Made by a program: the position numbers and the translations under genes. Source: Antedon mediterranea (lineage: Eukaryota; Animalia; Echinodermata). From it: a stretch of 64,000 nucleotides of DNA. The notes beneath the pieces were generated by a model. It did no database searches. It saw nothing but the letters and a program-made list of their open reading frames with translations, and had not been told where the DNA came from. The DNA lies in contig NC_092674.1 of assembly GCF_964355755.1 (NCBI RefSeq), forward strand, positions 7,936,001 to 8,000,000. Reading direction: 5' to 3'. Below are positions 5,936-61,463 of the stretch, in pieces (within the stretch, counting starts at the first letter, position 1; each line of letters opens with the position of its first letter).

Positions 5936-6014
5936 TAGGCTAGGCTAGGCTAGGCTAGGCTAGGCTAGGCTAGGCTAGGCTAGGCTAGGCTAGGCTAGGT
6001 ACTACTACTACTAC
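5936..6014. repeat. (TAGGC)n followed by (TAC)n microsatellite
   Basis: About 12 perfect TAGGC units, then about 5 TAC units, just 3' of the gene B stop. Confidence 0.95.
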
Positions 6015-6041
6015 TAACTCAATAGGTTTATTTTTGATTTC

Positions 6042-9000
6042 TCAATCAACTGTGTTAACATAAACATGTTCCGGTGCAGGCTTGGTGTTTGCATAAACAT
6101 GTTCACCAGATGAGGATTCAACAGCAGGTTTAATTTCTTCATACTCACTTTCTTCATATTTCTTAGATAGACTTTGATAATTTGTATCTATTGTGCATAC
6201 ATTTTGTTGAACATCAAATTTAGCAGCGTGTTTTCCTGAATCTATACGTCTAAATCTAAAAGAGACCAAATGTATTTATATCAATCAATTAATAAAAAAA
6301 AATTAATAAAAAATAAATATTTCATCAATATCAAACAAGGCCAACAGCCATTAAGTCGCGTGCTACAATGCATAGTGATACCGGACCGACAGACAAACAG
6401 ACCGACAGACAGACAGACCGACAGACAGACGGACCGACCGACCGACATAGTGAACTATACTGACCGAAATTACTGAACATGTTTAAAAATGTTGAAATGT
6501 TTAAAAACATTTATATTTTTTTAATTTACACGTGCGTAGCCTGTCACTTTTGACGTGCTCGTATAACGTAATTTCGAGTTGAAAAGTAAGTCAAGAAAAC
6601 AGAAATCGGGCAAGAAGAGTGCGCAATAACATTTAACGTGCAGTGCGCGCGCAAAAATCTGCGCACTCATGGCAATTTTGTAAACGCTTAAAATTGCCTG
6701 AAACGTACTCTTATTTCATCGAAAATAAATTTTGAAAATTTTAAACGCGCTTACGCATGCGTTACATGCGCTACGCACGTAATTGTATTGCCATATGATG
6801 ATTTATGCCCTGAAATTTATGAGTACCAAATTTTATTTAATTGTGATTCATGGTTGTTAAGATATGATTACAAACGTGATTTCGTTAAATCGTGCGTAGA
6901 CCACGTAATTTTTTATTGCGTAATTTTCGATGAAATAAGAGTACGTTTCAGTCAATTTTAAGCGTTTACAAAATTGCCATGAGTGCGCAGATTTTTGCGC
7001 GCGCACTGCGCGTTAATTGTTATTGCGCACTCTTTTTGCCCGATTTCTGTTTTCTTGACTTACTTTTCAACTCGAAATTACGTTATACGAGCTCGTCAAA
7101 AGTGACAGGCTACGCACGTGTAAATTAAAAAATATAACTGTTTTTAAACATTTCAACATTTTTAAACATGTTCAGTCATTTCAGTCAGTTGGTAGGTTGG
7201 TCGGTCGGTCGGTAAACACTAAGCACGCGACTGCAGCCATCTATATGGCCTTGTTCTTTTAAGTTTTAAGTTTTGTGATATGGATAAAATATCAAGCATA
7301 GTAACAGTTTCAGTGTGTGATACTATATGGATGAAATATCAAGCATAGTAACAGTTTCAGTGTGTGATACTATATGGATGAAATATCAAGCATAGTAACA
7401 GTTTCAGTGTGTGATACTATATGGATGAAATATCAAGCATAGTAACAGTTTCAGTGTGTGATACTATATGGATGAAATATCAAGCATAGTAACAGTTTCA
7501 GTGTGTGATACTATATGGATGAAATATCAAGCATAGTAACAGTTTCAGTGTGTGATACTATATGGATGAAATATCAAGCATAGTAACAGTTTCAGTGTGT
7601 GATACTATATGGATGAAATATCAAGCATAGTAACAGTTTCAGTGTGTGATACTATATGGATGAAATATCAAGCATAGTAACAGTTTCAGTGTGTGATACT
7701 ATATGGATGAAATATCAAGCATAGTAACAGTTTCAGTGTGTGATACTATATGGATGAAATATCAAGCATAGTAACAGTTTCAGTGTGTGATACTATACCG
7801 TTTATACATCATCACGATGACAGCAACTGTGATAACTGCCGCGATTAGTGAGCCAATTACAACACCTATGATGTAACCTGGAAAATATAAAAGGACAAAT
7901 TTTCTTGTTTTATTTACATTACTGGTACTGAATCTAATAAGAATTCCAAACAATGAACTATGTATAATACACACCTTGTTTCTTTTGGTCACAATTTGGT
8001 CCAAAAATGAATTTCTTTGTGTCAGATGTCCCACTAACGTGTAAAAATGATGCCAATACTGTGAATGTATATTCTGTACATGACTCAATTCCTTCACCAA
8101 ACAAAACTTGAGTTTCTGTAGTATTTCTTTGCTGAAATATTCCACCACCTGACAGTTCATAATGGTAGGTCACCTGATAGTTTGGAATGTCACATGTAGA
8201 AGCGTTCCATTTCATCAGTATATGTGTTCCATTTGTGAATGGATTGCTTTTTATCGATGGCTCTATTATTGTAACATAGAATATTAAACAGATTTTTAAT
8301 AAATGAATTATACTAGACATTAAGAATTGTTTCAATTGGCCGATAAAATGTTTTACCCATTTTTTTATATATAAACTTTACACTAAATGACCAACTAGGC
8401 CTAAATGTTAGTAAAATACACTCACACATTTAATGATTTAAGCATACCTGATGGTGCTGTTTGTATCAATATGTCCTCTCCCCAATTACCAACAATCTCC
8501 ATATTATTAACAACTCGAGCGTTTACGACATAAGCAGTACAACTTAATAATCCTGGTAGTTGAACTTCTAATTGAGAACTGTTTGTTGTGTTGACTACAT
8601 TTAGTATACTTCCATCGATGTCTGAGTACTGCACTTGATATCGAAGGATATAGTTACACTGGATTCGATCATAATCACTAGAAACAGACTGAAATACAGA
8701 AAAAAGACAAATACCGTTATTTGAATCTGATACTGGTAACCAATTTCTGTTTGATAATATGTTATATTGTAAGGACAAACAATTAGAGAATACTTTACAA
8801 CTTTACTTGCTTGAACTTACTTAGTTCATTTACAAATACCAATAACGTAATGTATACGGTATTTACATTCACTACTTTAATTAGACTTTCTAGTAGGCCT
8901 CCTAGTTCCGTAATAATTAATTTGTTGATTGTGGAACTTACGATAATGAAGAACAAACAAGAACAATAAAAACATATCTAGTGTACCTTTAAATTCACTA

Positions 9001-16459: not shown

Positions 16460-17408
16460 TATTTGTATTATTCTAAAATAATTATGATTGTTAGTAAAAT
16501 CCCGGACATGTCAATACCTGCAAAACATGACAATCAAATGGGTAATAAATTTATTAGTACGGTTTTTAAATATATATATATATTCAAATCTTAATATGAA
16601 CAAAGTGCAGTGGACTGAATTAAATTAAAATTAATAAAATGCTCTACTTTTACTGAATTTTTAAAATGCCGTCATTAAACCATAATAATTTTGAGTAATA
16701 CAAATATCAAAATCAAATCGTAACCGTTTTTCTTTTTGAAAACGTCCAACAGATCTGTTCTAGTTTCAAGTTCAACAAATCAAAATTAAGTCCATAACAA
16801 TAACCATCTCAAATATCCTGAAATATAAAAGTATTGAAGAAACGTTTGTATAATATATTTTTTTTTCTTTTCTGGTTCACCACCACATTTATTCATTCAA
16901 TGTTTCATTACATATTTTCTAAAAATGTTCTACCATTTTTCGTTATTTTCTGTTTTTCCTCATTGATATCTTAATTTTAACCTTAGTATCATACCATCAA
17001 TACAAAGTATTTACTTCTTAACATTTCTTGTGTTGAATCCTCTATTTAAAATAACCAATTGTATATTAAGTAAAATACTTAACTACATACATCAAATGTT
17101 TACTGCTATTAACCTGCACACACACATAGTGTAGACACATGTAAACATACACATTCATTTATATATATTATATCCTTTCCACAAATGTTTACATTTGCAT
17201 AATATTATACATTAATTATTCGTCAGACTTAGTCCTAAAGGCATACAATACAAACCTTTCAGTTGCTGAACAAAGATGCATAAGTTATGGTGAAGTACAG
17301 TCGCATCTTACAATTATACTAGGCCCAAAAGCTGAAAAAGAAAACACATTACTGAGTAAGATAATACATGATTGGAAGTTTGCGGATTTAATTGTATTTA
17401 AAGCTTAC

Positions 17409-17713
17409 CTTTGATGGTGTTTGTTGATCCAAGTGCACTACTTGGGCCTTCTACTTCAATACCACCAACCTTCCTCGAAAATTGAGAGTAAAATTGAACT
17501 TGCGTATTTGGGATAAGATTATTAATAATAAATACATCATCATCTGGTTCAGTTACTGAAATAAATGAATGTTAGAGTGGATGCTGTCTGGTAGACGGTT
17601 CAGAACTGTACGGTAATGCTATAATTATGGAAAAAAAAAGTACAGAAGATTATTCCAAAGAAAAGATAGGTTTATATAATTATGTTTTAGTTTGGAAATC
17701 GTTTAGCCGACAT
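17409..17713 (-). pseudogene. Collapsed remnant of a B-like paralog (signal-exon stub plus internally deleted FN3-1 exon)
   Basis: ATG at 17713 reads MSAKRFPN* (B: MLAKRFPN). 17409-17618 is a deleted and frameshifted FN3-1 exon (ALPY...NLIPNTQVQFYSQFSR..GGIEVEGPSSALGSTNT). Region ~18490-18670 resembles B's upstream region ~15645-15795. Confidence 0.75.
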
Positions 17714-18323: not shown

Positions 18324-20693
18324 TTACAGTATTATTATACATTTGTTATTTGTCTGATTGCTGCTACCACAAGAAACAATTTTGTTAATGTACGGTATAC
18401 TGTTTCTTTATTTGTTTTGTTTTTAGAGCAAATAATACTAATAACATGTATAATTGCTACACCCGCATTGTATATTCAATATACTTATACTTTTAAAACA
18501 AAAACATGTAATAATATTACGGTAATTGCGTACATCGTATAAGGAAATGAAATAATAATTTTAAAAGTAACTGTACTGCGGATTAGATTCATATTGTTTA
18601 CATTTGTGACGATAATGCTTCGATGCATTTTGATAATAAAAGTATACGTTAAGCCATCATGTAGGCTCTAGTTTGGTTCTCCACTACGTACACAAGTACT
18701 ACCAACTACAAGCGTCTATGTCAATATATTTGCGTCAGTGTGTTATTAAGCTTATTAGTGGAAACACTAATTTAATTTGGTAAATGCCTATGAATTGTAT
18801 TTATCTGTTAACGCAAAACTAAAAATATAGAAACTAAAATATTTAAATCAATTTACAGTTTAATCAATCTAGTGGAGAATTACTATATTTGTAATATTTT
18901 AGGTATGTTAAAGGTTTGTGTTTAAAGTAAGTATATGCAACCAAAAGCTAGATGTCAAAAAATTATACAAAATATGATTACTTTTATAGAGGGCGTATAG
19001 GATCCCAACAATCTCCTGTCTGTCTTCAAACACTGCATCACCCATTTACATTCGTCTTGAACACTTATCAATATTTCAGTAATGTCCTTCAGAAGATCAA
19101 CATTGTTGCAGTATCGTCTTTTTGTACTAAACTATCCACATCTTTCTCATCATCCGATCAAACCTTTTGCCGAAAATATAGTCGGCCGTTCACCAGAGGG
19201 CCGACTTTTGCAAATGTTCCTGTTAAGGTTTGATTTACCTGCGTTAACTGTCAAATCACCAGTTCCATCTGCCAGTTTGATAATATAAGCCCTGTTACCT
19301 CTAGGCCTCGATACGATCTGATTGGTTGGTTGTTTTTTAGTTAATAACCGACACCCAGATGTACTTACCTTTCATTATGCAAGAGCCCTTACTGATGCTA
19401 AAGTATTTTCGGAATATCACGATTAGAAATATTCTCGTTAATGAGTCTTTTTAAGTTCAAGCACACATTAAAGTAAAACATCATTTTTTATTGTGTTTAT
19501 TTTATAGGCATTTATTACATAAATCCATTTTACGATTGTAGCTTTAATGTTTAACGTTCATATAATTTCGTTTCAAGAAATTGGATTTTTATTTTTGTTT
19601 TCATTTTTCATAAATACTGTAGTATATTTTGTATTTGTTTTTCTATTTATATTTGTATACATATGGTATTATTTATATCGCCTTAGTTGACAGGGGCACA
19701 TCACAAGATGACGGTTTCACTAGTTTTGCTTTTCCTCTACACCCTATAACACTCTTGTTTGTGTTATGACTATGACTATGAAGTGACATTTATAATTATA
19801 CAAAAATTTTCAATAGCAAACAAATTACATAATTTGTTACGAAGTGATATATACAATTATTATAATAGAAAAAATAGTGTAGATAAGTAATCTAATAATA
19901 CGGCAAAAGACGACAAAAAAAGTTGAAGGATCCTAACTAGAAAAAAAAATTGTCTCACTACGGAATCCTGACTTAACTAAATATAAGGTAAAAATAGGAA
20001 AATAACAAATAAGAGGCAAAAAAATATAATAATAACGTTTTAAAAGTAGAAGGAACATTTTGAACAGTGAGCAATTATATTTCATATATAGATATAAGAT
20101 TAGAAAATATTGTTTTCAATTTCTCTTAAATAAGTATAGGCTAAATAAATTACTGTATGTACATTTTTAGGGAGTTGATTCCACAGTTTGGGACCAATTG
20201 AAGTAATAAACAATCATGGTTAAAACATAAAAATGGTATTTGCAATGTCTAACCAATCGGTTACAGGAGTATTATTATTATATTAGTTAAAGTTGATTGT
20301 CTGCCTTTAAATCTCAATGTAATAACTACAGTAGCGAAACAAAAATGTTTTATAGAATTTGACATAATTGTATTTGTTTTATTTATCATGCTAAGGCTGT
20401 TGTTATTCTATTTTGCGTGTTTGTTCAAATGAATTATATTTGTCCATTTCCTTTTAAGGTAATATTATTACTATTTTCTACTACGCATCTTGTTGATGTT
20501 TCATAATAATAAGTTTTATTTCATTATTGGTTAAATATTTTTGAAAAAGGAGTACTTGAGATTTTACACTTCTTTTGGAAACATGTTTGTATTTTTAGTT
20601 TATACCTATTCACGTAAATCATTTCTATGGGACTGTAACTACGATTTTGTAAATTGTTTTCACTACTACGGATAATTAAATGCTTTGTATTCT

Positions 20694-23600
20694 TCATTTT
20701 TCAACTATGTTATCATAAATATGTTCCGATAAAGGCTGTTGAGGGTTAGCGTAAACGTGTTCAGGTGGAGAAGTAGTACCAGCAGTAGGATTAATGTCTT
20801 CATATTGACTTCCTTCATATTTTTTAGACAAACTCTGATAATCTGTATCTATTGTACAAACATTTTGTTGCACAGTAGAAGATGTATTTCCATAATTTCC
20901 TGAATGTATACCGGTACGTCTGTATCTAAAATTAACAAAGTGTAGTATTGTTGGTAATATTCACTCGTCGATTTAAAGATGGTAAAGCAGTCAGTATGTT
21001 CTTTATAAGTAATATCTAATTTATAAAGATAGTAATAGTCTAACAATGATACTATACCGTTTGAATATCATCACGATGATAGTAACTGTGATAACTACAA
21101 CACTTAGTGAGGCAATTACAACTCCTATGGCGCAACCTGGAAAAATAAAATTACACATTTTTGATAACTTATTTTGAATAAAGCTTTGGTTTACAAGCTC
21201 GATATTTCTCTATATTTCATTGTTAGTTACTAGTACAAATCCCAAAGACAAATCTAAAAACGTGAAAAAAGTATCACTATTAAAAATGAATGCGGTTTCA
21301 TGTGAACTGCGCGTAAAAGGAGTCCGATATGATAAGGGTTTTAAGGAAATACTACTACACACCTTGACCAGAGTCTGCAGGATCACAATCTGTTTCAAAC
21401 ATGAATTTCTTTATGGCAGATGTCCCATTAACATTTGAATATGACGCTAATACTTTGAAGGTATATTCTTTATTTGACTCAATTCCTTCACCAAACAAAA
21501 TGTCATTGTTTGTTGTAGTCCCTTGCTGAAATATTCCACCTGACAGTTCATAATGGTAGGTCACCTGATAGTCTGGTATGTCACACGTAGAAGTTTTCCA
21601 CTTCATCAGCCAGTGTGTTCCATTTGTGAATGGATTACTTTCTATCGATGGCTCTAATAATTGTAATAATTCAATGATTAAAAATACATAATAATAATAA
21701 TAGTTATTATTCTTCACATCATAATTGTCGATAAGTTTTTTATAAGATCATAATATGAATAATAAACCAACCTAATGGCGGTGTTTGTACCGTTATCTCC
21801 TTTCCCCAATTACCAGCAATTTCCCAGTTATTTACAACTCGAGCATTTACGACATAAGCAGTACAACTTGATAATCCTGATAGTTCTACTTCTAATTGAG
21901 AACTGTTTGTTGTGTTGACTACATCTTGTATATTTCCATCTATGTCAGAGTATTGCACTTGATATCGAAGAATATATTCACACTGTATTTTATTATAATT
22001 ACTAGAAACAGGCTGAAATACAAGATTACATAATAATGTCAATTTCATCTGAAATGGTATTGTACTCTTCAACAATGTTTGCATTCATCAAGCTAATTTG
22101 TGAAGAAAAACAATGATGACCTAGCGAGCTCTCTGAGAACGTATAGATTAAAATAATATATTTATGAACAATTCTAACAAGGCCATATACATGGCTGCCG
22201 TCGCGTGCGCAAATTTGAGTTTGTGTTTACTGACCGACCGACCAACCGACCGACATAGTGAGCTATAGAGTCGCGTTCGCACGCGACTAAAAATGTTTAG
22301 AAACATTTATATTTGCCTCCAAGTATTAATATCCAGTGTCAAAATAACGACAAAAACAATTAGGAATATGAGTTAGTGTTTACCGACCGACCAACTAACC
22401 GAAATTGCAGCTGGAAATGTTAACAAATGTTGAAAAATAATAAAAAACATTTATATTTGCCTCCAAGTATTAATATTCACCGTCAAAATAAAAAAATAAA
22501 TGAATATGAGTTAGTGTTTACCGACCAACCGACCGAAATTGCTCAAAATATTTAAAAATGTTGACACATTTTTAAAAACATTTATCTTTCCCTACAAGTA
22601 TTAATATCTACTGTCAAAATAACGAAAAAATATGAATATAAGTTAATGTTTACCGACCGACATAGTGAGCTATATCAAACACATTGTTACAATACCTTTA
22701 AACTCACGATCATCTTCTTATTTTCAGTGGTGTTTACTTCTATCTCAGGTTCGTTCAAAGGTTCTATGTTATAAAATGGATTAGTGCTGAGCAAATCATA
22801 TATTAAACAAATAACACGTTGTCTAATATGGTATACTTTGGTAAATATTTACTTTATGTACTTTGCAAAAAGAAAGAAAATGAATAACAAAAACATTTTG
22901 TGTTATATGAGAATATAAAGTATGCTCATTTGCACAAAAAATAATGTGTACAAACAAATAATAAATGACATTTATTTAAAATTATCATACCAAAGAGATT
23001 ATAATAAAACCAAATAGGAACGATACAAAATAAATTGCTACAGCATACTGCAAAATCGTGTACATACAGTAATACCATGGACCTATAAATTAGGTCTAAT
23101 TTATAGGTCCATGATAATACATAACGTAGTAGGCTAATTTGCTGAATGACCATGCTTACCAGAACATATTGTGTTGGTTGATCCTAGTATACTTCTTGGT
23201 CCATGTACCTCAATACCACCAACCATCCTCGAAAATTGAGAGTAAAATTGATATTGAGTATTTGGAATGAGATTATCAATAAATAAATCATGATGCGGTT
23301 CTTCTATTGACATAAATGAATTCATTTGAGATGATTTATACGAAAGCTTTCGTTGTGAAATTGTTCCAGTTCCATAGTCTTCATCAAAAATCCAAGTGAC
23401 GTCAAGCATTAAGGCGGTTGCAGTCTGGTTTACAACAGCTGGCGGTTTGAGGCGGTATGGTAATGCTGTGTATAAAGAAATGCACTACATTATCTCATAT
23501 CAAAAAGGTGTACTACTAACAGATAAAGAAAGCACCATGATGTAACTACCACGTTGCGACTTGCAAGGAGTATAATATAATAATTATTATGCCTTAAGAT

Positions 23601-28318: not shown

Positions 28319-29091
28319 GTTCTAATATTATATTACTATCAATGTTCCTACATCAAATTTAAGAAGTGATTATAATAATTAGATCAAATAATACATCTTC
28401 ACATTCAGTATGGATTTGCAAGGTGAGATCTATTGGATATTACTATATACATGTTTTTTTTAGTTGTTGTCAAATTATGAGTTTGATACTGGATTACTGG
28501 ATATGGGCATTGCAGTCTGTGTTCAATCTTTGTATTTGTGTACATAAACTTTATTTATATTTTCAGTTGTCCATATAATAGTGTAAATATCTGTCAAAAA
28601 GTTATTAAAGCACAATTACTTACCTCAGTCATAATCTTTACTGAAGTCTGGAATTGTTTTTATTGATTATTCAATATTATTTTAATCACATCAGTCAGTA
28701 ATGGAAGTCTTTTCGATTTTAATAATCATTAATTCTAAATCTTATTTATTTTGTTTCCGCTTGAATCGTATTTGTGTACTCATTGTGTGTTCTACATAAG
28801 TGAGTATTTGTCTATTGTGTTTTCTTGTACACCCACTTGATAACTTTCGTTGCTAATAAATAATAGGAGCTTTCTGCTTGACTACACATATGTCGAGTTA
28901 AAAAATCACTATGAGCATTTGCAGTTTAGTGGAACGTGTACACAAAAGTTCTCTATGACAAAGAAATGTTATCTGCTTAGGGTAATTATTTAAAGAAATT
29001 GTCGATTATAATTAAATACACTTTCCTAACCACTACAAATTACAGTCTTCGTTGTTTTTAGACTATGCCTAGTTATAATTATTGACTTCAT

Positions 29092-32000
29092 TTATTTTTC
29101 TTCCGATACTCTGTTGCCATCATCACACCTTCTCAGATAACACAATGCAGCGTCATAGCAAAAGTTGTATTGGATCTAAATTAGTAAAATAATAATAAAA
29201 ATACTGTTAAATACAAAGTAATACGTTCACGTAATGTGCTTATTAGATTAGTTAATCACTCTTCCCTGGTTAGTCCTACGATTGTTACGTATATAATTTT
29301 CTTATAAACTAAATTTCCTCACTATTAAAACTAAATAAAAAAAAAACTTGTCTTCTCACCTCAGAGTCCACCATAGTGGGGCATGCTGACCGCAGTGCTT
29401 TAAGTGTTTGGAATACATCTACTACCTTTTCATCTCGCATTTTCTCGATCATAGAATAAACTAGACAGAACAAGCCTGATCTGGAAACACCGTCTCTAGA
29501 GATTGATATAGATTGTGTTTTTATAGTTTCCATAAAACTTAATTTAAAACTGACCAGCTTACAGGCCCGTCGTGTTTCCACAGCTACAAATTAACTGATA
29601 ATTAGCCGATAACCGGGGTTTAACTGATTCTACTCGAGAAAAATTAACCGATAATTATCTCATTCAAATCGGATAACTATCGGGAAAATGCGATAAAGTT
29701 TTACCTTTGACCTGAAGAAAAATGGTTGTGTTGTGAGTGTGTACCTGGTTGTTTTATAATGAATGATCATGCGCACTTTATTTTTTAATTGATTACCTGA
29801 TTGGTTCACAAATTTTTTTTTTGGATGCGAAAACACATGTCATGTGTCTACGTTGAAAATACAAAATGTTAACATAATTATAAAATTTCAATATTTTTAG
29901 TATTACATAATACGATGACAAACTGCTGTAGAAAGAATACGTTACATTTTCCGTTACTAATAGGCCTATATTAATATTCTAATAACAAAATAGAGAATAT
30001 TTCAATTTATACCCACGTGCAATGAACAGTGATCGGTGTATTGATAGAAGACGTAGCACGTCCTTCCATTATCGTCCTAATGAATTTAACAAATGCATCA
30101 ATTTCAGGAACAGGTTTATTTTCTGGCCATTGGTTAACTTCATACAGAATAATTTGCTGTACATTGTTATCCTATAAACACAAAACAGAGAGTTATTAGT
30201 TTAAATTGTACTTACAAACATCTATTTTATTGTTCTTTGTTCAGATTTCTGTTTTCGCGATGACAATTTCATTTAAACGTGTCATCATGTCTTAGGAATT
30301 ATGTAAACAATTGTTCTATTGCAGATACTCCAGTAACTACATCGCTTACTACAATAAGGATAATCTTAGTTGGTTTCAGTGCAGAGGTGTAGGTATCTAT
30401 TATATTGTAATCTTCAAAAGAATATTGATTATATTTGTTATAAAACTTTAAAAATATAGATACTGCTGTAACTCATGCATTACAATTATTTTGAGATGGT
30501 ACTTCAGTAAAATACAACAAGAAAAAAATTTAGTAGGTCTAACCTTTTTTAGATTTAATTTTCTCTCAGTCATAAATTCGTTCTGAAAGTTTGACTTAGC
30601 AGTCACGGTTAATTCACCAAATGGTTGTTTTTGGTTGATCTTTTTCGGGAGGTACATGGCACTCGTTAGGTCTTCCATCTCATGTAGTTGTACAATGACG
30701 TCAGATTTACAATCAAACACCAAACGCCAAAAATCGATCGTGGTATCCGATAATGGTGTCCGAGTAACAACAAAAGCACGGCGACCCTTGTGACGCTAGG
30801 ATATAAATAAAAGATAACACCGGAAAATATTTGTGTTAAAATAAGTATTTAAAAAAGAGTATTTCTTCTATAATTGTCTTGCAGGTGAATATTACTATCT
30901 TTACAAATTGCTTTTGAGATCTTTTTTCATTTTATTACGTTCTCATATTAATTGAGAAACAACATGTTTTTAGGTTCAGTTTGATTTCACATAGCGCTAG
31001 CTTATGCCCCTCGCTTTCCTTTGAATGAAACGTTCATGTCCTCATACCTCAATGAGCGCAGCATTTACGTAATCTGCACCACTGCCAACATCCAGATTTA
31101 GTTGAAAACATCCTTTAGTCACTGTGATAAATTAAATAATTTTAAGAAGCTTAATATCAGAAATTATAATGTTTTTTACTCAAATATGAATGAAAGAAAT
31201 AAATGTTTATTTGAATTTGAATTGAATTGAATTAATTGATCTACTAATAATCGGGCTTATGACAGTCGAGGTTCTAATCCACATCAAAATCGTGATCATA
31301 TTTAATAATCTTTGATGAACACATGCAATTCAAAATTGCTATAAAAAACCGACTGAAAATTACTACATTACACAATTGAACCGTTCTCAATTGTGACGTT
31401 ATGTTCTTGCTGTTTAATAATAACCACATTATATTTAAAAACTTTCTTTATCAATAATAGTCAACGTATAGTAATAATTGGTCAGTTGTTTGCCCTACTT
31501 TTACGTCATTTGTACATACCGAGAATTCTCGGGTACATTATCATCAACATTGTTAATTACACTGATGTATTAAGTATGTAACTTACGGAACAAAACATTA
31601 TGAAATGTGTCCTGGCAACTGACATCTTGTCGTCTAGTTTGTGACGCAAGATCTTCACCAGGATGTGGAAACAAATTACGCAACGTCTGCGAATAAATGC
31701 ATTGTTTAATACAAAATGTTTAGGATATCCGAATCGTATATTCGTCATCGATGTCACAACCAACATTGCTACTATTAGTCATAGCCATTTCCTTTTTTTT
31801 TTTCTTTTTATGCGTGTGCTTAAAACGCAGGCGAAAGAAATCCAATTTACTATTTTTGTATTTTCTTCTTTTTTAAAATTTTCATAACATAACGTGTTAG
31901 GCAATGTATTGCTCCCCCTTTTGTATGAAATTCATTAGGTAATTTAAGAATTGGCAGTCAGTTTTTATGTGTGTTAAAAACTCGAGAGAAAGAAACATAT

Positions 32001-35000
32001 TATTTCATTGGGAAATATTTTTTTTTTTCTTTTCTATGTATTTTATCATTTTTTTAATAACTTTATGAATTCAATTTTTCGGTTTTTGTTTATGCTTTAT
32101 TAATATAAGACTAATTAGTTAAACAAGACAGTCAGACAGTAATTCTTTGTAATATAGAGAGATTCGTTCTGGTGTTGATTCTGAGAGGATAATGGGTAAT
32201 TAATTTAAAAATTAGAACAAATCATGCTTTACCTCAAATTCTTTCTTTAATTGATGCTTCGTTACATAGCCATGCAGTTCGGATAACTCAATAGGTTTAT
32301 AGTCTTTATTTTCAGATTCTTCATAAACAAGGTCCGGCTCAGGCTCAGGGTCAGCGTATACGGGTTCAGTGGAAGAAGCAACAACTTTTGACTTAATATT
32401 AGTATATTCACTGTTATTTGCAAATTCCGTGACGTCATAAACATGTTCAGGTTCCGGCTCCAAATCAGAATCTGGCTGCGTGTATACGGGCTCAGCACTG
32501 TTGCAATAGGCATGTTCAGGCTCCTTTTCTGGTTTTGTGTATACATACATGGCAGAAGATTTAGTGGCAGCAGTAGACTGAATATTTTCATATCCTCTTT
32601 CTTTTTCAGACACATTTTGATATTCCGTATCTACCGTGCTTAGGCCTAAATTTTGTTGACTAGTTGAAGATTTACCAACGTTGCCTTTGGGAAACAAGTG
32701 TCTAAATCTGAAATGAACAAATCATAATGTTTAAAAGAATGTATGTGTACGTCATCACCATTTTTATATTCTCTGTAATTGTTTTTTTTTTTAATTTTGT
32801 TAATGCAGATAGTTGTAATATTTACAATTTAGTATGATATTATTTTTGTAATACTGTACTTATTATCTGAAATATGTTTGTAATAATATTTCTGTAAAAA
32901 GTATTATAATACTTACCGTTTAAATATTACCAAAATGATTGCTACTGCGGCAACTACGGAAATTAGTGAGCCAATTACAACTCCTATTACGGTACCTAGA
33001 AAATTATTTAATGCTTATTATGTTCATAAAGTAGTCATTTGAGGAGGGGGGGGGGGGGTAGCAAAACAGTACAAAGGAAAATGTAAGAAATTAAGGGAAA
33101 AATAGAAGTAATATGATTAAAGAAATATATATATTTGAAGACAAATATTACTGATTATTTGTAATGTATTTAATTATGATGTGAAGGAATAAAGTGGTGG
33201 TTTACGCCACAAAGGAGAGAAAAAAACGTAGTCATTAGGCATAAGTTATAAAAAAAAAACAATGGCTTTAATAGAAAAAAATATTTATTTTTTTATATTA
33301 AAATGTTGTTTACCTATATAATCCATTCAAAGTTCAATATTTTTCTTCGTAGGACTAAGATTTTCGATTTTTATAGTTACTGAATTCTATTCACAAAGCA
33401 CAAACAGTAAGGAACTAACCTTGCTTCTTTTGATCACAATCTGTACCAAAGATAATGGTCATTACGTCAGATGTCCCTCTTACGTTTAAATAAGACGCTA
33501 AAACTGTGAATGTATATTCTATACACGAATCAATGCCTTCGTCAAAAACAACTTCAGTTTCTGTTGTAGTTCCTTGCTGAAATATTCCACCTGATAGTTC
33601 ATAATGGTAGGTCACCTGATAGTCTGGAATGTCACATGTAGAAGCGTTCCACTTCATCAGTAAATGTGTTCCATTTGAAAATGAATTGCTTTGTATCGAT
33701 GGCTCTATTATTTGAAAAAAGAATAAATAGGCCTATACTATATTAAAAATAATTACTGTGATTATTAGGACTATCCTATGAGTAAATCTTTAGATTTAAT
33801 ACAATATAGTTAATAATAGGAATAAGCATACCTGAGGGCGATGTTTGTACCGTTATGTCCTCTCCCCAATTACCAGCAATCTCTAAGTTATTAACAACTC
33901 GAGCGTTTACGACATAATCTGTACAGCTTGATAATCCTGATAGTTGAACTTCTAATTGAGAACTGCTTGTTGTGTTGACTACATTTAGTATATTTCCATC
34001 TATGTCCGAGTACTTCACTTGATATCGAAGAATATAGTTACACTGAATTCGTTCATAATCACTAGAAACAGGCTGAATTATATAAAATAATCCGTCAGAA
34101 AGAATGAGAATGAGAACTTTTTCAGACATAGGCCAATAGAAATTTAGCTTAAAGGGGGGATTTGGGTTTAAAATGAATAGTAAAAAATGTAAAATATATT
34201 TGTTTGTCTCCTGAACGGTAAAAGTTTCAATTTATATAAGCGCCCAGTGAAGCAGAACGAAGGCTGTGAAATCAGGCCAGATTAAAAGTGCAGCTACGGC
34301 AAAATCACACTGTGGTTACAAAATAGGAAATTCGTGAAATGGTCCATCTTCCGACGACTCGTTATCATTAACCATATCAATTACTTTTGTAAAATTATAC
34401 TTATCTGATGTAATTTTAGTCGGTCTTCCCATTTATAAAGTCAATTTTTTATGAAAATTCATCAAAACAGTGAAAAATTAGATATGTTTGCACTTTACGT
34501 TTGCCGATTTTCACACCGACTTAGGGAAAAATCAAAATCAATGAAGCGTAACGTATACTGTACATTCCTGCTGAGGATCGAGCGAGACGACGATACACGT
34601 GCTCTCTCTGCTGCCCATGCTTGGCATCGTCACGTTATAAGCAGATACAACAATACCAAACTGGTCGGGTCGAGTATACCCCGTCTATAATCACAACATG
34701 AACGATGTACAGTATTTGATTGAAGGTCGACTCGACCTTCCGGAATGGTATAGATAATATAGCTCGAATGAGAGAGTTGGAATATTTGTGTAGTGCAGCC
34801 TATAGTAAAATGCCTGGTAGTATCAATTCGCATAGGGTCTACTACACTAGCTAGCTCAATTTTTAACTGGGCCGGATCGGCTAGGTCTCCTTCCTACTAC
34901 CTGGTCTACTTGCTTGATGCATGAGTATTCCGCTTTTTTGGAGAATAAACTAGCCTAAGCCTATTTTATTTTAGGCCTACTTAGACGATCGGGACACCAT

Positions 35001-38000
35001 ACGTGTGGACGGCGGCGATCGGACCTTGTTTTGCTTCAATATTTACAGCCGATTTTGTAGAACGTTTTAGGTTTAGATTGTTTAGGAGTTTGGTTGATAG
35101 GATGGGTTTTGTTATTTATGGGCCAATCGTCTAGTAGTAGGCTAGCTAGGCCCAGGGACCCCATTGTTTTAACGTAGCCATCGTGGCGTGGAATCCCTAG
35201 TCAGAATGGCTCTCGCCCATTAGGCTAGGCCTAGAGTAGTATTGTACGTGAAGCCGATAATACGATCTGTACTATAGTATAGAGGTATAACAATAGTATA
35301 ATTTATGACTCCGTAATCTGTACTAAATTTTGTATTTCATTAAATGTCAAATAAATATATGCTACTACTGTTATTATTACACTTTAGGCCTAGCTTAGAA
35401 AATCTACAAAAAAATGTATTTCACAATGATCGGGTGGTCGTCGTTTGACAGGGGAGAGAGAGTTTTGAATCCACTGGTGACGTGATTTTGTGAATATCTC
35501 ATGAATATTAATGAGCTTCCCTAAGCTGCAGAAAAACAGACTTTCCATGAATTTACCCTAAAATGTATATGAAATTTAATTTTTTTAATTTCTCGTTATT
35601 ACTTCTTCATTCTGACATGTCTATATTGTTATAATATTTTTTATTTAATAAATAAACGATATTTAAAAGCAATTTTAAACCCAGAATCCCCCTTTAATCC
35701 TGTTAGCGGATAAAACAAGTTTACGAAAATTCCATTTACGTAAGTGAATGATTTGTGGAATTATCCTTGTCTACAGCAGCTCTCCGTAAAAAATGTAGGC
35801 CTATACAACACGTAAGTCAATTATAATTATATACAATTTTCAAACCTACTACTGTAGTTCAGGGGAATGGGTTTGTTTCCCTTTACTGGGATTGGAGTAA
35901 GAAACCGGCATCTATAAACGGAAAAACAGGAAACAAGATTGATATACTATTATTTACACCAAGCAAAACGTGTGAACAAAAAAAAATACTTTAAAACCTC
36001 TAAACACAATTTGACCTGGTTTTCTTCAACAGATTTCAGTTCTATCTCAGGTTCTTCCAAAGGTTCTATAACATAAAGAATGAAATTGCTGAGCAAACAA
36101 AAATCATGACGACATGCTTTATTAAATCGCTTCTGTATAAATATAGTTTAAAATGTATTCTCAAAATGCACATTATAAAAATGTAAAAGTAGTCCAATAT
36201 GTTTCAATTTTATAACTGACCTTCACAGATTGTGTTAGTTGTTCCAAGTGCACTTCTTGGTCCATCTACCTCAATACCACCAACCATCCTCGAAAATTGA
36301 GAGTAAAATTGGTATTGTGTATTTGGGATGAGATTATTTATAACAAATAATACATCGTTATCTGGTTTAGCCATGGATATAAATGAATCCATTTGAGATG
36401 ATTTGTACTCAAGCTTCCGTTTTGTGATTGTGCCTGTTCCATAGTCTTCACCAGGAATCCAAGTGACGTCAAAAGTTAAGGTAGTTGCTGTCTGATTTAT
36501 ATCACGTTGCGATTCAGTGTGGTATGGTAAAGCTATTTAATAAAACACATATTTGTGTATATTTTTAACAAAAACGGTGCTTTTTAATTTAACTTATATT
36601 AATAAAACAATATAAACATGTAAGCATGGAAGGTGATTTTTTTTTCGTTCACCTTTCTTCACCCTCTCCATTTCTCCTTTCTCCCAACTTTAAATTCAGA
36701 AAAGTATCTCAAAGCTTAGGGTCTAATTATTCCTCATAATATAAATAAATGTGTGTCGTTACCTATGCTGCAATTTGGTCCAGCCCAAGCCTCGTGACAT
36801 CCATTAGTACAACTTCCATCTCGATTACACTCTTCAGAGTCTTTGCAGTGACATGGGAAGTTACACAAGACACCGAAGTATCCGGATTGACATGACACAG
36901 GCTCTTTACAAAAAAAAATATGATTATTATGTTTGTCATTAAAACTATTTAACTCCAAAACTAATACAAGCTTCTGCAATTGTCTAAATCTAAAGAACAT
37001 ATGCTATAGGTTCTTTGCTCAATATTATCACATTCGGTACAGCTCATTAGGAAGTATACTCTACAGTTAGAGGGAAAATGGCACTGTGGTCATGTTAACA
37101 ATATAGATTATCTGATCAAATTCCTAGAAAGTAGGAAACATTTTGCCATTTTTTCCTGACTGTTCATGGTTCTCACACAAAAATAAGACTGTACAGTATT
37201 TTCAAGGTTGTTTTTCTTTCTACATGGTAAGTTAACAATATTTACAAAGGAAACATAAAAATGATAATAAAAGAAAATGGTATCGAATTGTCAAATATCA
37301 TTACCTAGACACCTGTCACCGGTGTAGCCAAACAAACATGTTGACCCAGAAGTACATCCTGTATCTTGGGTACAACTGATGATATCACAGTTACATTTTT
37401 GCCTACAACCAGCTCCATGGTAACCATCCTCACAAACTTAAAAACATAAAACAAAGAACTTTTGTAGGAAAACTCATTTCACAAAGGTGACAAGCAGAGC
37501 ACAAATAATGGAAAATATAGGCCTATTAATATACTTGACCAATTATAAAGTATTAATTAGGTATACATTATAAAACATACTATTCAACAAACCATTACCA
37601 TAAATAACGAAAATTGTTTATTTTTAGCATAATTGTTTTTCTGATCTTTGCTGATACATTTAATGATAATATAGACCTAATTAAAATCTAACCTCTTTCA
37701 CAATCACTTCCTCCAAAACCATTGATGCATGCACAACCAACTGGATCAGGTGGACATAGAAGAGATCCTTGACAATTCCCAACAGAAGAACATACAGCTT
37801 TGCATTCACGACCCCAGTTGTTATTTCCACAGCCTATTAGTAAACAATCATTTCCGTATCAGTATATTCTATTTACACATTGCTATTTTGTAATAATCAA
37901 AACATAATTAACATAAATCACATGCTATGTTTGATATGTTTTTAAACATGAATTTGTCTTTACCAGTTTGACAATAATTGCCTTGAAATCCTGCTGGACA

Positions 38001-40555
38001 AATACAGACACCCGTCTTATCGTCACACACTCCGCCATTATAACATACGGGACAGTCCATTTCACAATCTGGAGGATTCCATTTTGGCGAAGGACAAGCT
38101 AATATACAATATAGAAAACAATTTAAATGACTTGTAATAAATTGAGCGAGTTTCCTAAGCCTACCAGAAATGCTACGTGTTGGCCTATAAGGATAAATAT
38201 AATAAAATAAAATTAATAATATTTTATCAGTAAATCATCACACACAATAAATTCTTTTTATTATGTGAAGTTATTTATCAGACCCAATCTAATATAGTGC
38301 AACAATAGTCCTGCATTTTATCAGAATTCGTTGTACACATCTGTATAGCTGAAGAGATAAGTAATGGCTACAAATATACCTAATGATAAGCAAGACAATT
38401 TGGATTTCCTTGAAAAAAGTAGGCATATAACTGTTAAAACCTACCTCTAACAATCAGCCTCATGATACCATGGTTACCATCAGGACTATCACCTGTATAA
38501 CATTCATATACGCCATCATCTTTTCTTCGTATGTTTTCAATCACAACAGACGTATTACCCCTTAGATTGTGTATTTCCTCACCGTAATTATGTCTCCAAC
38601 GTAAATCATTAAGATCATCACCTTTACTGAGATTGACCGTGACAAACTCTCCAATACCGACCGTTATCGTTCTGTACTCAATTACAATATTTGCTGTAAA
38701 ATAATAATTGGATAATGAAAAAATCTATACTTTTATTTACGTAGAATTAGTTTAACGTAGTTCTATGAACAATCCTAAGATAATTTTACAATTAAAGATA
38801 TTGTGGGGAAAGCTTGCCCATACTCACCAGAAGTGGATGTTATTACAATTGCTGAATTTGTGACTATTCCAGTTTTATTAGCTTCAAATGAGAAGACACC
38901 AACTCTTTCAGTTTGACTTTGTAAGTTAGTAACACCCAGTGAAGTGTGGGAGTCGAATACCCGGTATGTAATACTGCTACTTGTGTGAAATATTTTACCG
39001 TCTGGCATATCTATCGTTTGCTCTCTTCTAGCACCACTCTCGTCGGCAGACGTATCAGCCCAAGTCACGTTATCTTTCCCATCGATATTCTTGTATAATA
39101 TTCCAATTGATAAATTTCTAATGTCTTTGTCGTCTTGAAGTGCATATCCACGAAAATAACTATTACCAGATGTCGTCAGTGGTGTGCCAGAAAAACATGT
39201 TAAAATCTAATGGATCTGAAAAGAAAATGGCAATCGGTCAATTTACTGCAATTACCATACTTATTGGTATCCTTGTCACCTGAGGCAACTAATCTACACT
39301 TGACGTTCAATGAAGGGGGCTCTCTAAGTTTTAGATAGAGAGTTAAATATGGTCAATTTCTATTAGGGAGTTAGTGATATTGTAGTATGCGAGAATGTCT
39401 CCAGTTACAGTGTAATTTCAATCTTTTATATATGCATATAGAATTAAGATAGCGAGTTGCCAAGGTAGGCCTTAAACAAAATGACTTTTTACAAACATCT
39501 TGATCATGAATGGGCTTTTGATGAAGTATTCCAAACAATTATTGAGAGTAAATGATTTATTCAATCAAGTTTCAGCTGATAAATAGAAATTTGCCCAGAG
39601 TACAAAAATATCAGGTCACATACGGCAAACATATTTAAAAAGCGTAAATACAATTTTTTTTAAAAAGATACTCAGAACTATTTTTTAGTCATGTGGTGCA
39701 ACGCGACTCTACAGCTCACTATGTCGGTCGGTTGGTCGGTCGGTCGGTTGGTCGGTCGGTCGGTCGGTCGGTTGGTTGGTCGGTCGGTAAACACTAACTT
39801 GAGCACGCGGCTGCAGCCATGTATATGGGCTTGTTAAAAATACGAACATCAATTAAGAGTAGAAGAGTAAGTAACTAAAAGTATTGGTACAATAAATCCG
39901 AGAGGGATGTGTGTCGACACCCGGAAATTATTAGAAGGAACCTTAAAGGGAAGGAACATTTAAAAGTAATCATTGGATGAATACAGGTATAAAAGGCGCA
40001 ATGATTTGACCATTAAGAGAAGAACGCAGGCGGACCGACAAACAACCCAGAATTTTAACCAGACATTTTAAATCTAGAATTTTAAAACAAATACGTATTC
40101 CTAAAATTCACATGTAATTAAATGGTAGATTTATTTTTAGTCGCGAGCGTGCAACACGACTCTACAGCTCACTATGTCGGTCGGTTGGTCGGTCGGTCGG
40201 TCGGTAAACACTAACTTGAGCACGCGACTGCAGCAGCCATGTATATGGCCCTGCTCACTTTAAAACCAATACTTAGTTTTAAAAATCCCATGTAAAAGGT
40301 AGATTATTTAGGTCATTCAGGCCACTAATACTTCCCTAGAATATCATGAAATATATAAATTAATTATTTTACGATAAACTCTCTTTGTTCGGAAGACTTT
40401 CGTATAATTATTTTAAACATTATAGATTAGAACCACTCATTGTAAACTATTAAAAACAGCAATTAATCATAAAGCATACCTGATACTCCTAGTTCACAAG
40501 TCAAACTGAGAGTTATGACTAGATAAAACAAAATTGGAAAGCGTTTGGTCAACAT
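29092..40555 (-). CDS. Gene D: Tie-like ectodomain + TM + Tyr-rich tail + single D2-type PTP domain, ~1170 aa; 1-bp frameshift in exon 2 (young null allele or assembly error)
   Basis: Exons: 40480-40555, 38828-39215 (388 nt, extra base near 39202-39205), 38445-38693, 37964-38098, 37693-37833, 37305-37436, 36763-36903, 36221-36532, 35998-36065, 33832-34072, 33420-33704, 32917-32995 (TM), 32233-32707 (tail). PTP exons: 31587-31686, 31048-31121 (DYVNAA), 30544-30795 (TIDFWRLV), 30017-30171 (WPE...ITVHC), 29360-29495 (TDGVSRSG...VDVFQ), 29092-29175 (QYNFCY). Confidence 0.75.
34153..35693. mobile_element. Non-autonomous Kolobok-like DNA transposon (1541 bp) in a gene D intron
   Basis: TTAA TSD at 34149-34152 and 35694-35697. 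TIR AGGGGGGATTTGGGTTTAAAAT / ATTTTAAACCCAGAATCCCCCT. Empty site TTTAGC-TTAA-TCCTG in paralog E at ~49440. TTAA TSD with purine-purine termini fits Kolobok rather than piggyBac. No transposase ORF. Confidence 0.85.
39683..40254 (-). mobile_element. Two short HINE-like copies (~39683-39835 and ~40134-40254) in gene D intron 1
   Basis: Both read ...GACTCTACAGCTCACTATGTCGGTCGG(n)TAAACACTAACTTGAGCACGCG...GCCATGTATATGG. Not seen in the E intron 1. Confidence 0.7.
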
Positions 40556-42309: not shown

Positions 42310-42385
42310 CTGATAATCCATATTGGCACGTCAAAAAAAGAGTTATAACCCGGAGGAACAACTTTGGGAAACAATTATTCAACAT
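42310..42385 (-). other. Orphan or alternative signal-peptide exon of the family
   Basis: 76-nt ATG exon MLNNCFPKLFLRVITLFLTCQYGLS(G) with GTACGT donor, the same length and phase as the other first exons. No Ig1 exon of its own was found. Confidence 0.7.
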
Positions 42386-57969: not shown

Positions 57970-58690
57970 ATGTTTTCCGTAAACTATTTGTCAAATATTC
58001 TTTATCTGGTTTTAGCAATTCTCAGTTTAGGTTGTCCAACAGAGTCTTCAGGTATGTTAAACGATTAAAATACGATACAGAGTTGGAGTAAACTATAGCT
58101 TGCGAATTTGTTTAGCCAGTTTTATCAGACACAAAGAGTGACAATGGAAATAAAGTGAACTAACAATGTAGCCTACTTTCAGAATGGCAATTTTAATCAA
58201 ATGCATTTCTTGTTCCTCTCTTTTCAGTTTTAAGTCTCTTTTAGGTTTAACTAAAGTTTTTTGAAAGTTCATAATTGAAAGTGAATCACTTCCAATCCAT
58301 TTGCAGATCCATTAGATATAACATTATTTTCTACGACACCACTAACGACGCCTAGTGGTAGTTGGTTTGCTGGATACATACTCCGAGGCGACAAAGACAT
58401 TCGAGATTTATCAGTTGGAATAATGTACAAGAAAATCGAAGAGAAAGGTAACGTGACTTGGAATGATACTGGGCATACGGGTGGTTATACTATTTATACA
58501 GATTTTAAAAATAAGCCTATGCCAAACAATAAAATATTTACTCCCACCAAGTGAAATTATATACAGGGTACATTATAGTCTAACAGCACTCTGAGTTACA
58601 AAATTACAGCCTCGAATTTAAAGAGTTGGCGTTTTTTTATTTGAAACAAAGAAAAATGGAGTAGTCATGTGCACAAATTCAGCAATTGTC
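57970..58690 (+). pseudogene. Gene F: truncated pseudogene (signal exon plus disrupted Ig1 exon)
   Basis: Exon 57970-58051 reads MFSVNYLSNILYLVLAILSLGCPTESS. The exon from 58307 reads DPLDITLFSTTPL...DIRDLSVGIMYK, has a frameshift near 58550 and TGA/TAA stops, and ends at ...NSAIV in an A-run with no donor. Confidence 0.82.
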
Positions 58691-59581
58691 AAAAAAAATA
58701 AAATTAATAGTTTTTCACTTTGATCGAAAAAAAAATTATTTGCCTGATAGAAAAACGTAATTTAAAGCAAGAAATACTTAAATGTCTGTCAGACAATGGT
58801 TTTTGGTTAAAATTAACCGTTTCTTTTGTCTTTTTATAAATAAAATAATTTTGTTTTCGTTTATTTTTTTTACAGAAGTGAACAGCTTTATTAAAACTGC
58901 AAAGGGCCTATTTAAAGTCTGATTTATATTTTTCATTATTTTGGGACAATAGGCTACATCTTTAAAACTATACTTTAAAACACGGATCGACACTTTGGTT
59001 TTTATATTATTCTCAACACGCAAACTAGACTATTTATTTATTTGCTGATCCCGCTTGTAAACAATAATATGTATTAGGAATTGTTTAATTTAGTCAAGCC
59101 GCTATGTCATTACCGCTTTCAAATAAAAATTACGACTTACGCTACCAGGTATTGCTAACAATTAAAATTAGTTTAAATATAGGTAAAGGTATTGAAACAA
59201 TGCTTTGTTTGGCCTTATTTGCAACCGTACTCTACGGTTTCCTTTGCTTACTAGTCATTTAAGTTTACAATTACGTTATTATAGTTCAATTATGTATAAA
59301 TAATTGTCACTACTACACAGATGTTTATAAATAAATATGTACATTTCCATGCGATACCATGTTTTAGTTTCATTGACTCATAAGACAAAAAGGAACGTTT
59401 ATTGTCGAAACGTGTTCTTTTAACCGTTAATTTTTCTTTCAGTTTCATTTGAGTAATAATTCCTTGTAAAATAATATAAAAGTTAGATTGATTATACAAG
59501 AAATCAGTTATATAAAGTCTAGGACTGCTACACTATACTGGTTTTTTTAGTCATAAGTGAACATAGAAGGTGAACATTGAA

Positions 59582-60893
59582 ATGTTTTTCGTTAAATATA
59601 TGTCAAATGTGTGTCATCTGGTTATAGCAATTATCTCTTTTGGTTGTCCATTAGAATCTACAGGTAAGCTAAACGGTTAAAATAATATCACAAGGCTTAG
59701 ATAGCCTATTATAGTGTTTCATTACTTATTTTATCATTGATTTATACAAAGATATATGCCAGTAGTGTTTACAGAAAAAAGATTGTTAATATTCTTTAAT
59801 GTCACAAATTAACTTAAAAGCCTAAAAGAACTACGTGATGCTCTTAATAATATAGCAGAAGGAAGTAGACATTCAAACCAAATCATAGATTATGCTCTTT
59901 CAGTACCGTGGACGATAATCATAAGCCGACTCAGAATAGGCCTAAATTATTAATCATATATAATCTCAAATAAATATTTCCTAAAATTTAAGATCCATTG
60001 GATGTAACATTATTTTCGGGTAGCCCATTGTCGCAAAGGAGCGCCTGGTTTCGAGGATACGCACTTCAAAACGACAGTGACATCAGAGATCTATCAGTTG
60101 GAATATTATACAAGATTATTCCTGGTAGAAATAACCTGACTTGGAAAGATACCGAGTATTCGGGTAATCATACTGGTAATATGAAAGTTAAAGATATGCC
60201 AGACGGAAATGTGTTCTACACAAGCAGCAAAATTATATACCGATTACACGCCAATTTGACTTTTCTTGGTGTTTATAATAACGTCGAACGACCTCAGATG
60301 ATTGGTGTATTTTCATTTCAAGCAAAGAAGGATGCAATAGTCGCCAACTCGGCAATTGTCTTGACATCCGCTTCTGGTGAGTAACTAATTATCAGCTATT
60401 TATAATAATAATAATATATCTATTTACTCCAAAATAAATCTATACAAATAATTCAAATGTATTTATTTGTCATCGCATACGTACACAGTGATATTTCGAA
60501 ACAATTTCAAGCGTTTTATTAGTTTAACGATTAGTTTACACTTGCTTTAATGAGAATAGACTACATGATATTTTGAAACATTTTCACAGATATCAGCACT
60601 CAATTGCAATTTTTAGTATTTAGGCTATTATTGGTATTTCACAGCCAATATTATAATAGAGTACAGAACGACAACGGTCGGTATTGGAGAGTCTGTCACT
60701 ATCAATCTCAGTAAAGGTGGTGATCTTAACAACTTACGTTGGCGACATAATTACGGTGAGGAAATACACAATCTGAGGGGTAATACGTCTGCTGTGATTG
60801 AAAACATACGAAGAAAAGATGATGGCGTATATGAATGTTATACAGGTGGTAGTCCAGATGATCACCATGGTATCATTAGACTTATTGTAAGAG
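59582..60893 (+). CDS. Gene G: Tie-like receptor, 5' part (signal peptide, Ig1, Ig2); presumably continues beyond window end
   Basis: Open GT-AG exons: 59582-59663 (MFFVKYMSNVCHLVIAIISFGCPLEST), 59993-60376 (Ig1), 60645-60893 (Ig2, ...DDGVYECY...RLIVR). No EGF exon was seen before 64000. Confidence 0.82.
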
Positions 60894-61463
60894 GTAGGGT
60901 TTAACAGTTATTGCTCATAAATTGTTTTTAATGTTACAAGATCATTATGATCGCATACATAAATAGAATAAAGATTGTAAATATAATTGAAAAAAAAAAT
61001 GGCGAGAACACATGATGAACAAACCTAAATAGTCGAATTTAGAAAACACCTGGTCTGATCTACACTGTTTTTCTCTCGTTTTCTGAAAAAGAATTCTTTC
61101 ATTTTACGATAATTCTGTTATTGAAGTGATTCAGTCGTCAAACCATATGAGATAGTATACAGAAGATGAATGTTTATGAGTTGATAAATTGAATGCTCTA
61201 TTTTTAACGAAGCCATCATAATCATTGAGGAATGTTAGGCTGGGAAGCTAGGCCATTAAAAAAAGGTTCCAACTTTAGACGCGGTATAGAATAGACGGCG
61301 CGAACGAGATCACTCAAAAAAGTCGCGTGACAAAAATTCTAAAAATAATTTACAGAAAGATGAACGTGCATTAGAGCCGTTCATTATCACCATTATATAT
61401 CACCTTTTCATTAGGGTTAATTCCAAAATCAAATTGCAAGAATACAATGAGTTGTTTTAGGCC

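Follow-up and report, generated by a model that had tools for sequence, protein, structure and literature searches.

A Tie-like receptor tyrosine phosphatase paralog of the crinoid Antedon mediterranea that has lost D1 and carries a lone D2-type domain

The stretch of DNA analysed here, the window, comprises 64,000 nucleotides of contig NC_092674.1 of Antedon mediterranea (assembly GCF_964355755.1, positions 7,936,001 to 8,000,000), and all coordinates below are positions within it. It contains a tandem array of related genes, all on the minus strand: gene A (54925-44300, ~54.9-44.3 kb), gene B (~40.6-29.1 kb), gene C (27243-20695), gene D (15040-6043) and the start of gene E (below 2.4 kb), together with several fragments. 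Gene B, the locus under study, encodes a Tie-like ectodomain, a transmembrane (TM) segment, a Tyr-rich tail and a lone protein tyrosine phosphatase (PTP) domain of the D2 type. Gene A is a tandem duplicate of gene B with the same lone D2, now broken, and was absent from the preliminary description of this locus. Genes C and D have the ectodomain and TM segment of gene B; gene C ends in a short Tyr tail with a stop ahead of the PTP region, and the tail of gene D stops just upstream of a remnant of a D1 helix, the in-frame residues KPIEL directly after the stop codon. Because such pre-D1 helix remnants persist past the stops of both genes, clearly in gene D (6000-6045) and faintly in gene C (20640-20700), these two genes descend from PTP-bearing ancestors.

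All protein records used in this work (P-numbers) are gene predictions. The RefSeq model of gene B, P0015 (XP_071950705.1, A. mediterranea), maps exactly to 18 gene B exons plus one gene A exon, and the NCBI models P0006 and P0013, also of A. mediterranea, map at 95-100% to genes A and D. Among the fragments, 58303-60895 on the plus strand contains two Tie-like first-Ig pieces with stops, one of them followed by an Ig2 exon, in head-to-head orientation with gene A, and an isolated half FN3 exon lies at 17404-17568 between genes C and D. A near-perfect tandem repeat with a period of 94 nt occupies 7278-7797, in the intron downstream of the gene D TM exon.

The ectodomain of gene B begins with a predicted signal-peptide exon (40555-40480), a hydrophobic open frame with a phase-1 GT donor that resembles the N-terminus of P0009 and P0013 and is left unused by the RefSeq model. 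Upstream of it, at 42310-42385, lies another exon that resembles a signal peptide and has a phase-1 donor; it may be an alternative start or an orphan. There follow a first Ig-like exon (39215-38828), an Ig2 exon with four EGF-like exons that form the Tie-like region (38694-36764; Pfam Ig and EGF matches, Tie2 match at E 7.9e-32), three FN3 repeats in four exons (36533-33418) and the TM exon (32995-32917). This is the Ig-Ig-EGF-FN3 order of Tie receptors, with four EGF-like exons; no third Ig was seen in the ectodomain, which in P0015 matches the Tie2 structures 4k0v and 2gy5 at E ~1e-31. A Pfam search of P0015 found no kinase domain. One FN3 intron holds a 1.5-kb insertion (34149-35697) with 26-nt terminal inverted repeats and TTAA bounds; it is missing in gene A, very deep in contigs and likely a non-autonomous DNA transposon. 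The intracellular part opens with a Tyr-rich juxtamembrane exon (32707-32233; 11 Tyr in 136 aa) that ends in a D1-derived N-terminal helix pair and a phase-0 donor, followed by a 546-nt intron (32232-31687) where D1 exons would be expected.

The first Ig exon carries a defect that had escaped the preliminary description: its 388 nt lie between two phase-1 boundaries and so include one extra base, at about 39202, which shifts the frame on the window haplotype. Rescue by another acceptor joined to the phase-1 signal exon was considered and rejected, as the nearby AGs, inspected by eye, give the wrong frame. Residues 1-27 of P0015 come from a PTP exon of gene A spliced to gene B, leaving a chimeric N-terminus without a signal peptide; the model borrows this exon because the frameshift is thereby avoided, and we regard the join as an annotation artefact. 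Four DNA-like runs of a single sample bear on this. Two of them, X2 and X5, have contigs identical to the window, and three, X3, X4 and X5, have contigs that are one base shorter at 39202 and carry two linked substitutions, although these shorter Logan contigs extend only 16-29 aligned bases past the indel on one side, fewer than the 31 bases of the bridging rule. This fits a heterozygous null allele on the window haplotype; the open-allele contigs could also derive from another copy. A further run, X1, guessed to be RNA, covers intergenic DNA (28500-29159) and has no splice joint among the matches listed, so that it says nothing on expression.

Six exons between 31686 and 29092 encode the PTP domain on the minus strand: 31686-31587 (100 nt), 31121-31048 (74 nt), 30795-30544 (252 nt), 30171-30017 (155 nt), 29495-29360 (136 nt) and 29175-29092 (84 nt, including the stop codon). 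An AG acceptor precedes each of them and a GT donor is present at all five internal junctions. The preliminary description had joined these exons into one PTP domain with a set of unusual motifs, and the exons, the splice sites and every motif were recovered: CQDTF, DYVNAA, TRTPL, DFWRLV, WPE, HCTDGVSRSG and VDSEIQY. When four PTP exons were scanned singly, three matched Pfam PF00102, and the Y_phosphatase search that it had proposed for the whole protein gave a single PF00102 stretch in P0015 (E 3.8e-48; 164.6 bits against a cut-off of 20.9). Translated across the junctions from the Tyr-rich exon to the stop codon, the sequence is identical to the tail of P0015. An AlphaFold2 model of the domain built on a 33-row alignment reached pLDDT 81 and pTM 0.83 and supersedes one built on a shallow 7-sequence alignment (pLDDT 56.6). 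Its N-terminal helices score ~86-91, and residues 36-74, the region of the pTyr loop, score below 50, which may reflect divergence of this loop and not disorder. Foldseek aligned the model to solved PTPs at a TM of ~0.78.

With respect to catalysis, the CX5R signature of active PTPs is present (HCTDGVSR), and KNRY, the Asp of WPD and the Gln of the Q-loop are replaced (CQDTF, WPE, DSEIQY). The roles of these motifs are set out in PMC7320164. Lacking the KNRY Tyr and the Q-loop Gln, and with WPE and an Asp/Ser pair in its P-loop, the domain is predicted from its residues to be without useful catalysis. That the active site keeps a residual or redox-dependent function, whether by trapping pTyr, by weak phosphatase activity or by sensing redox state through the retained Cys, seems to us quite improbable. 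Such a function would agree with the intact CX5R, whose Cys does not vary across the 33 aligned rows, with the low residual activity that the change of WPD to WPE alone leaves in PTPRK (PMC7320164) and with the oxidation sensitivity of the PTPRA D2 (PMC9464862). The same Cys/Arg pair is however found in ordinary D2s of the relatives and therefore carries little weight; the Q-loop has another residue in place of Gln, an Asp stands in the P-loop, and the Tyr of KNRY that stacks on pTyr is absent from a loop that the model does not resolve. The pTyr trap, which the preliminary description had offered as one option, is unlikely because this tyrosine is lost and is weakened as well by the poorly modelled loop.

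To which of the two receptor PTP domains this one belongs is clear from a quick tree of 60 PTP domains, supported by SH-aLRT only and excluding four isoforms and all pieces shorter than 200 residues. The gene B domain lies deep within the D2 group, as sister to the lone D2 of P0096 (SH-aLRT 98), and the two adjoin the D2s of P0001, P0016 and P0017 (SH-aLRT 100). Forcing it among the D1s was rejected (p-AU 0.00018, with five further long or redundant rows dropped), a test that refers to the residues after the junction described below. Compared with 10 two-domain chains of the PDB, it had its best-matching stretch in the second domain of 8; the exceptions were PTPRG and PTPRZ. The earlier reading of the domain as a D2 is thus borne out. 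In the Tie-like relative P0150, the second PTP domain retains an active-looking HCSSGAGRT motif and branches basally on the D2 side.

That gene B once had a D1 is evident from its relatives. A search for forms keeping both domains, which the preliminary description had suggested, found them within A. mediterranea itself: P0009, P0014 and P0167 have D1 and D2 with canonical D1 motifs, and P0016 and P0001 have a degenerating D1 followed by a D2. The D1 of P0016 is without KNRY, and the D1 model of P0001 lacks KNRY, WPD and the Cys. A Cys-to-Ser change in the latter was considered and rejected, since the Cys is simply missing from the model, at an exon boundary. The two-domain form is also found in Anneissia (P0168). 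Over 257 positions, 138 residues of the gene B D2 are identical to the D2 of P0009. A permissive tblastn search of the 64-kb window, for which two D1 domains served as queries, turned up no D1 exon; its matches were a helix of 23-29 residues ending the Tyr-rich exon and cross-matches to the D2 exons. The 546-nt intron is therefore empty of D1 exons, and no second PTP domain stands between the TM segment and D2, as had been described. Since close paralogs retain both domains and the gene B domain nests among D2s, gene B has lost its D1, in line with the original proposal.

Unforeseen in that proposal was the structure of the junction. The 24 residues that end the Tyr-rich exon score 86 against the D1 of P0009 and 18 against its D2, and the residues after the phase-0 intron score 679 against its D2 and 227 against its D1. 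The same pattern, D1 before and D2 after, was seen with all five crinoid relatives compared; with a fish R2B protein the piece before the junction was uninformative (21 vs 27). In a D2 the N-terminal helices derive from the D1-D2 linker, whereas those of gene B match the helices of D1. Judged by these scores, the gene B domain is a chimera in which the first helix pair of D1 sits on the body of D2, and on the AlphaFold2 model it is predicted to fold as a complete PTP domain. The simplest account would be deletion of the exon block between two homologous phase-0 introns, one at the start of D1 and one at the start of D2; a block deletion of this kind keeps the reading frame.

The junction also bears on whether the lone D2 is made at all. 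Transcripts might end ahead of the PTP exons and yield a secreted ectodomain or a tail-only receptor, which would agree with the RefSeq gene A model P0006, stopping at the last FN3 exon, and with paralogs C, D and P0007, which finish after the Tyr tail. We consider this very improbable for gene B: its Tyr exon has no stop ahead of a GT donor whose phase fits the first D2 exon, the joined frame recurs in P0015, P0096 has the same junction, and the conservation of the D2 implies its translation.

P0096, a lone-D2 model from another large contig of Antedon that is partial at its N-terminus, allows the retention of this form to be examined. Its D2 and that of gene B share 165 of 258 residues (64%) and both are stop-free, an outcome reached in 9 of 2000 neutral simulations (mean 5.6 stops) that included point changes only and assume the P0096 model to be uncorrected. 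The lone-D2 form has thus been long retained in two genes, and, on this sequence comparison, the lone D2 is apparently under purifying selection. Path lengths from the shared node of the tree are 0.35 and 0.43 for the lone D2s and 0.36 and 0.28 for the tandem D2s; because the whole degenerate clade is longer-branched than the clade with an active D1, relaxed selection contributes.

The surroundings could nevertheless be taken to say that gene B is a decaying member of a birth-and-death array, on its way to becoming a pseudogene, with its D2 a passenger toward the tail-only state. The window haplotype is frameshifted; gene A, which is a pseudogene, has two internal stops (a TAG in the first Ig exon at ~54772 and a Glu-to-stop change within D2) and differs from gene B at 20 non-synonymous or stop codons and 8 synonymous ones; genes C and D lack a PTP altogether, gene D keeping its remnant after the stop; and the array includes broken fragments, at 58.3-60.9 kb and at 17.4 kb. 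Against this stand the stop-free, 64% identical D2s of gene B and P0096, the intact state of every D2 splice site and the contigs without the frameshift in three of four runs of the sample, and we hold decay of gene B to be unlikely.

The family as a whole was sampled with one catalytically empty paralog sequence as query, whose 150 best relatives were taken from among 1.84 billion representatives; because the query is a crinoid sequence, the sample is skewed to crinoid kin. A PTP match was found in 26 of them, a kinase match in 10 (one weak) and neither in 114. The 26 divide into 17 two-domain proteins, three with D2 only and six with D1 only or partial (one weak). Ten were looked up: those with a PTP came from Antedon, Apostichopus, Patiria, Asterias, Acanthaster and Glandiceps, and those with a kinase from Patiria and Branchiostoma. 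A Tie-like ectodomain followed by D1 and D2, seen in crinoid, sea star and sea cucumber models, is the ancestral form of the family. The preliminary description had seen novelty in a phosphatase on an ectodomain normally tied to a kinase; as the join is ancestral, and PTPs are commoner than kinases among the best 150 relatives, we reject it as a novelty of gene B.

A TM segment followed by a single D2 also occurs in gene predictions from Apostichopus (P0173, P0174 and P0131) and Glandiceps (P0052). A single origin of five of the lone D2s was rejected (p-AU 8e-62), in a test whose group was named after the first tree had been viewed; P0131 was too short for the tree. This suggests that D1 was lost independently in the sea cucumber and acorn worm models. 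A wider reading is tentative, and we would sooner doubt than accept it: echinoderms and hemichordates may have repeatedly made D2-only receptor pseudophosphatases by deleting the block of D1 exons, in no fewer than three separate events (in crinoid, sea cucumber and acorn worm), and the crinoid genes may form a rapidly evolving array of paired receptors, whose members have an active D1 with D2, a dead D1 with D2, a D2 alone or a tail alone, and in which one signal, received through one Tie-like ectodomain, is tuned in opposite directions, as by vertebrate paired immune receptors.

For gene B itself, we think it probable that it belongs to the paralogous Tie-like receptor tyrosine phosphatases, that a deletion between two phase-0 introns removed its D1 and left the D1 helix pair fused to D2, and that the receptor likely acts, without catalysis, as a scaffold or decoy alongside its active D1+D2 sisters. 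Its working product would come from the open allele, the window haplotype being the frameshifted one, and the receptor would meet the same kind of extracellular ligand as the active paralogs. The tails of the lone-D2 crinoid forms are enlarged, with 136 aa and 11 Tyr in one and 218 aa and 15 Tyr in the other, compared with 70-93 aa and 2-6 Tyr in six D1+D2 relatives; the Tyr density of gene B (8.1%) is close to that of P0001 (8.6%) and P0016 (7.5%), so that its tail is longer and has more Tyr, not a denser array. Motifs of the YENI, YxxP and YxN types bind SH2 domains. In gene B, other kinases may phosphorylate the tail, which would then recruit SH2 proteins. The lone D2 may bind partners independently of phosphate, by analogy with the D2 of PTPRK, whose binding to Afadin does not depend on phosphorylation and uses the surface opposite its dead site (PMC9640194). 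It may also compete with active paralogs such as P0009 for substrates, as does the inactive PTPRU, which binds substrates and competes with its active paralogs, PTPRK among them (PMC7320164).

The null allele weakens the case for gene B; the clean junction of the chimera strengthens it, as do the apparent signs of selection and of convergence. A D2 kept after deletion of its D1, under apparent selection and apparently more than once, argues for a job of the D2 that is independent of D1 catalysis. The D2s of receptor PTPs are conserved but dead, and gene B is a natural construct for testing the function of a D2 alone. The array, moreover, documents each step by which an active receptor phosphatase is reduced to a receptor with Tyr motifs alone, all on a Tie-like ectodomain, a type most familiar from kinases. 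Novel receptor PTP architectures were reportedly described in the sea urchin by Byrum in 2006, so an earlier description of such forms is possible. Our search of the full-text literature found no Tie-like receptor PTP and no D2-only receptor; the likeliest places for a prior description, Byrum 2006, Chen/Dixon/Manning 2017 and Andersen 2001, lay outside its scope. The passages retrieved from PMC7959691, PMC10815196, PMC9464862 and PMC5336234 describe D2 only behind a D1, or single-domain R3 receptors.

Gene B is a receptor PTP in which the loss of D1 is established and a scaffold or decoy function is probable. Its nearest likenesses are the crinoid Tie-like receptor PTPs (P0009, XP_071950701.1, and Anneissia P0168, annotated as 'RPTP T-like'), with which it shares the Ig-Ig-EGF-FN3 ectodomain, the TM segment, the pre-domain helix and D2. 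They keep a D1 with KNRY, WPD, HCSAGAGR and Q-loop, whereas gene B is without D1 and has a longer Tyr tail. With Tie1 and Tie2 it shares the Ig2-EGF region (Tie2 E ~1e-31) and three FN3 repeats, but it has no kinase. The R8 PTPs (PTPRN/IA-2 and PTPRN2) are single-domain proteins. They are receptors with a pseudophosphatase domain (PMC7959691), as is predicted for gene B, but their ectodomain is of the SEA type (PMC10815196). The D2s of the vertebrate R2B receptors (PTPRK/M/T/U) share a D2-type motif pattern with gene B, and the tree places a fish R2B D2 within the D2 group that holds gene B; the ectodomain of R2B receptors is of the MAM-Ig-FN3 type and a D1 invariably precedes their D2, while the D2 of gene B stands alone. 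An R2B D2 binds substrates away from its dead active site (PMC9640194), and for gene B such binding may be supposed by analogy only. PTPRU has no active PTP, as is predicted for gene B, and resembles it in a WPE loop and a divergent pTyr loop, beside active paralogs (PMC7320164), but it retains two domains with a mutated D1, whereas in gene B the D1 is physically deleted.
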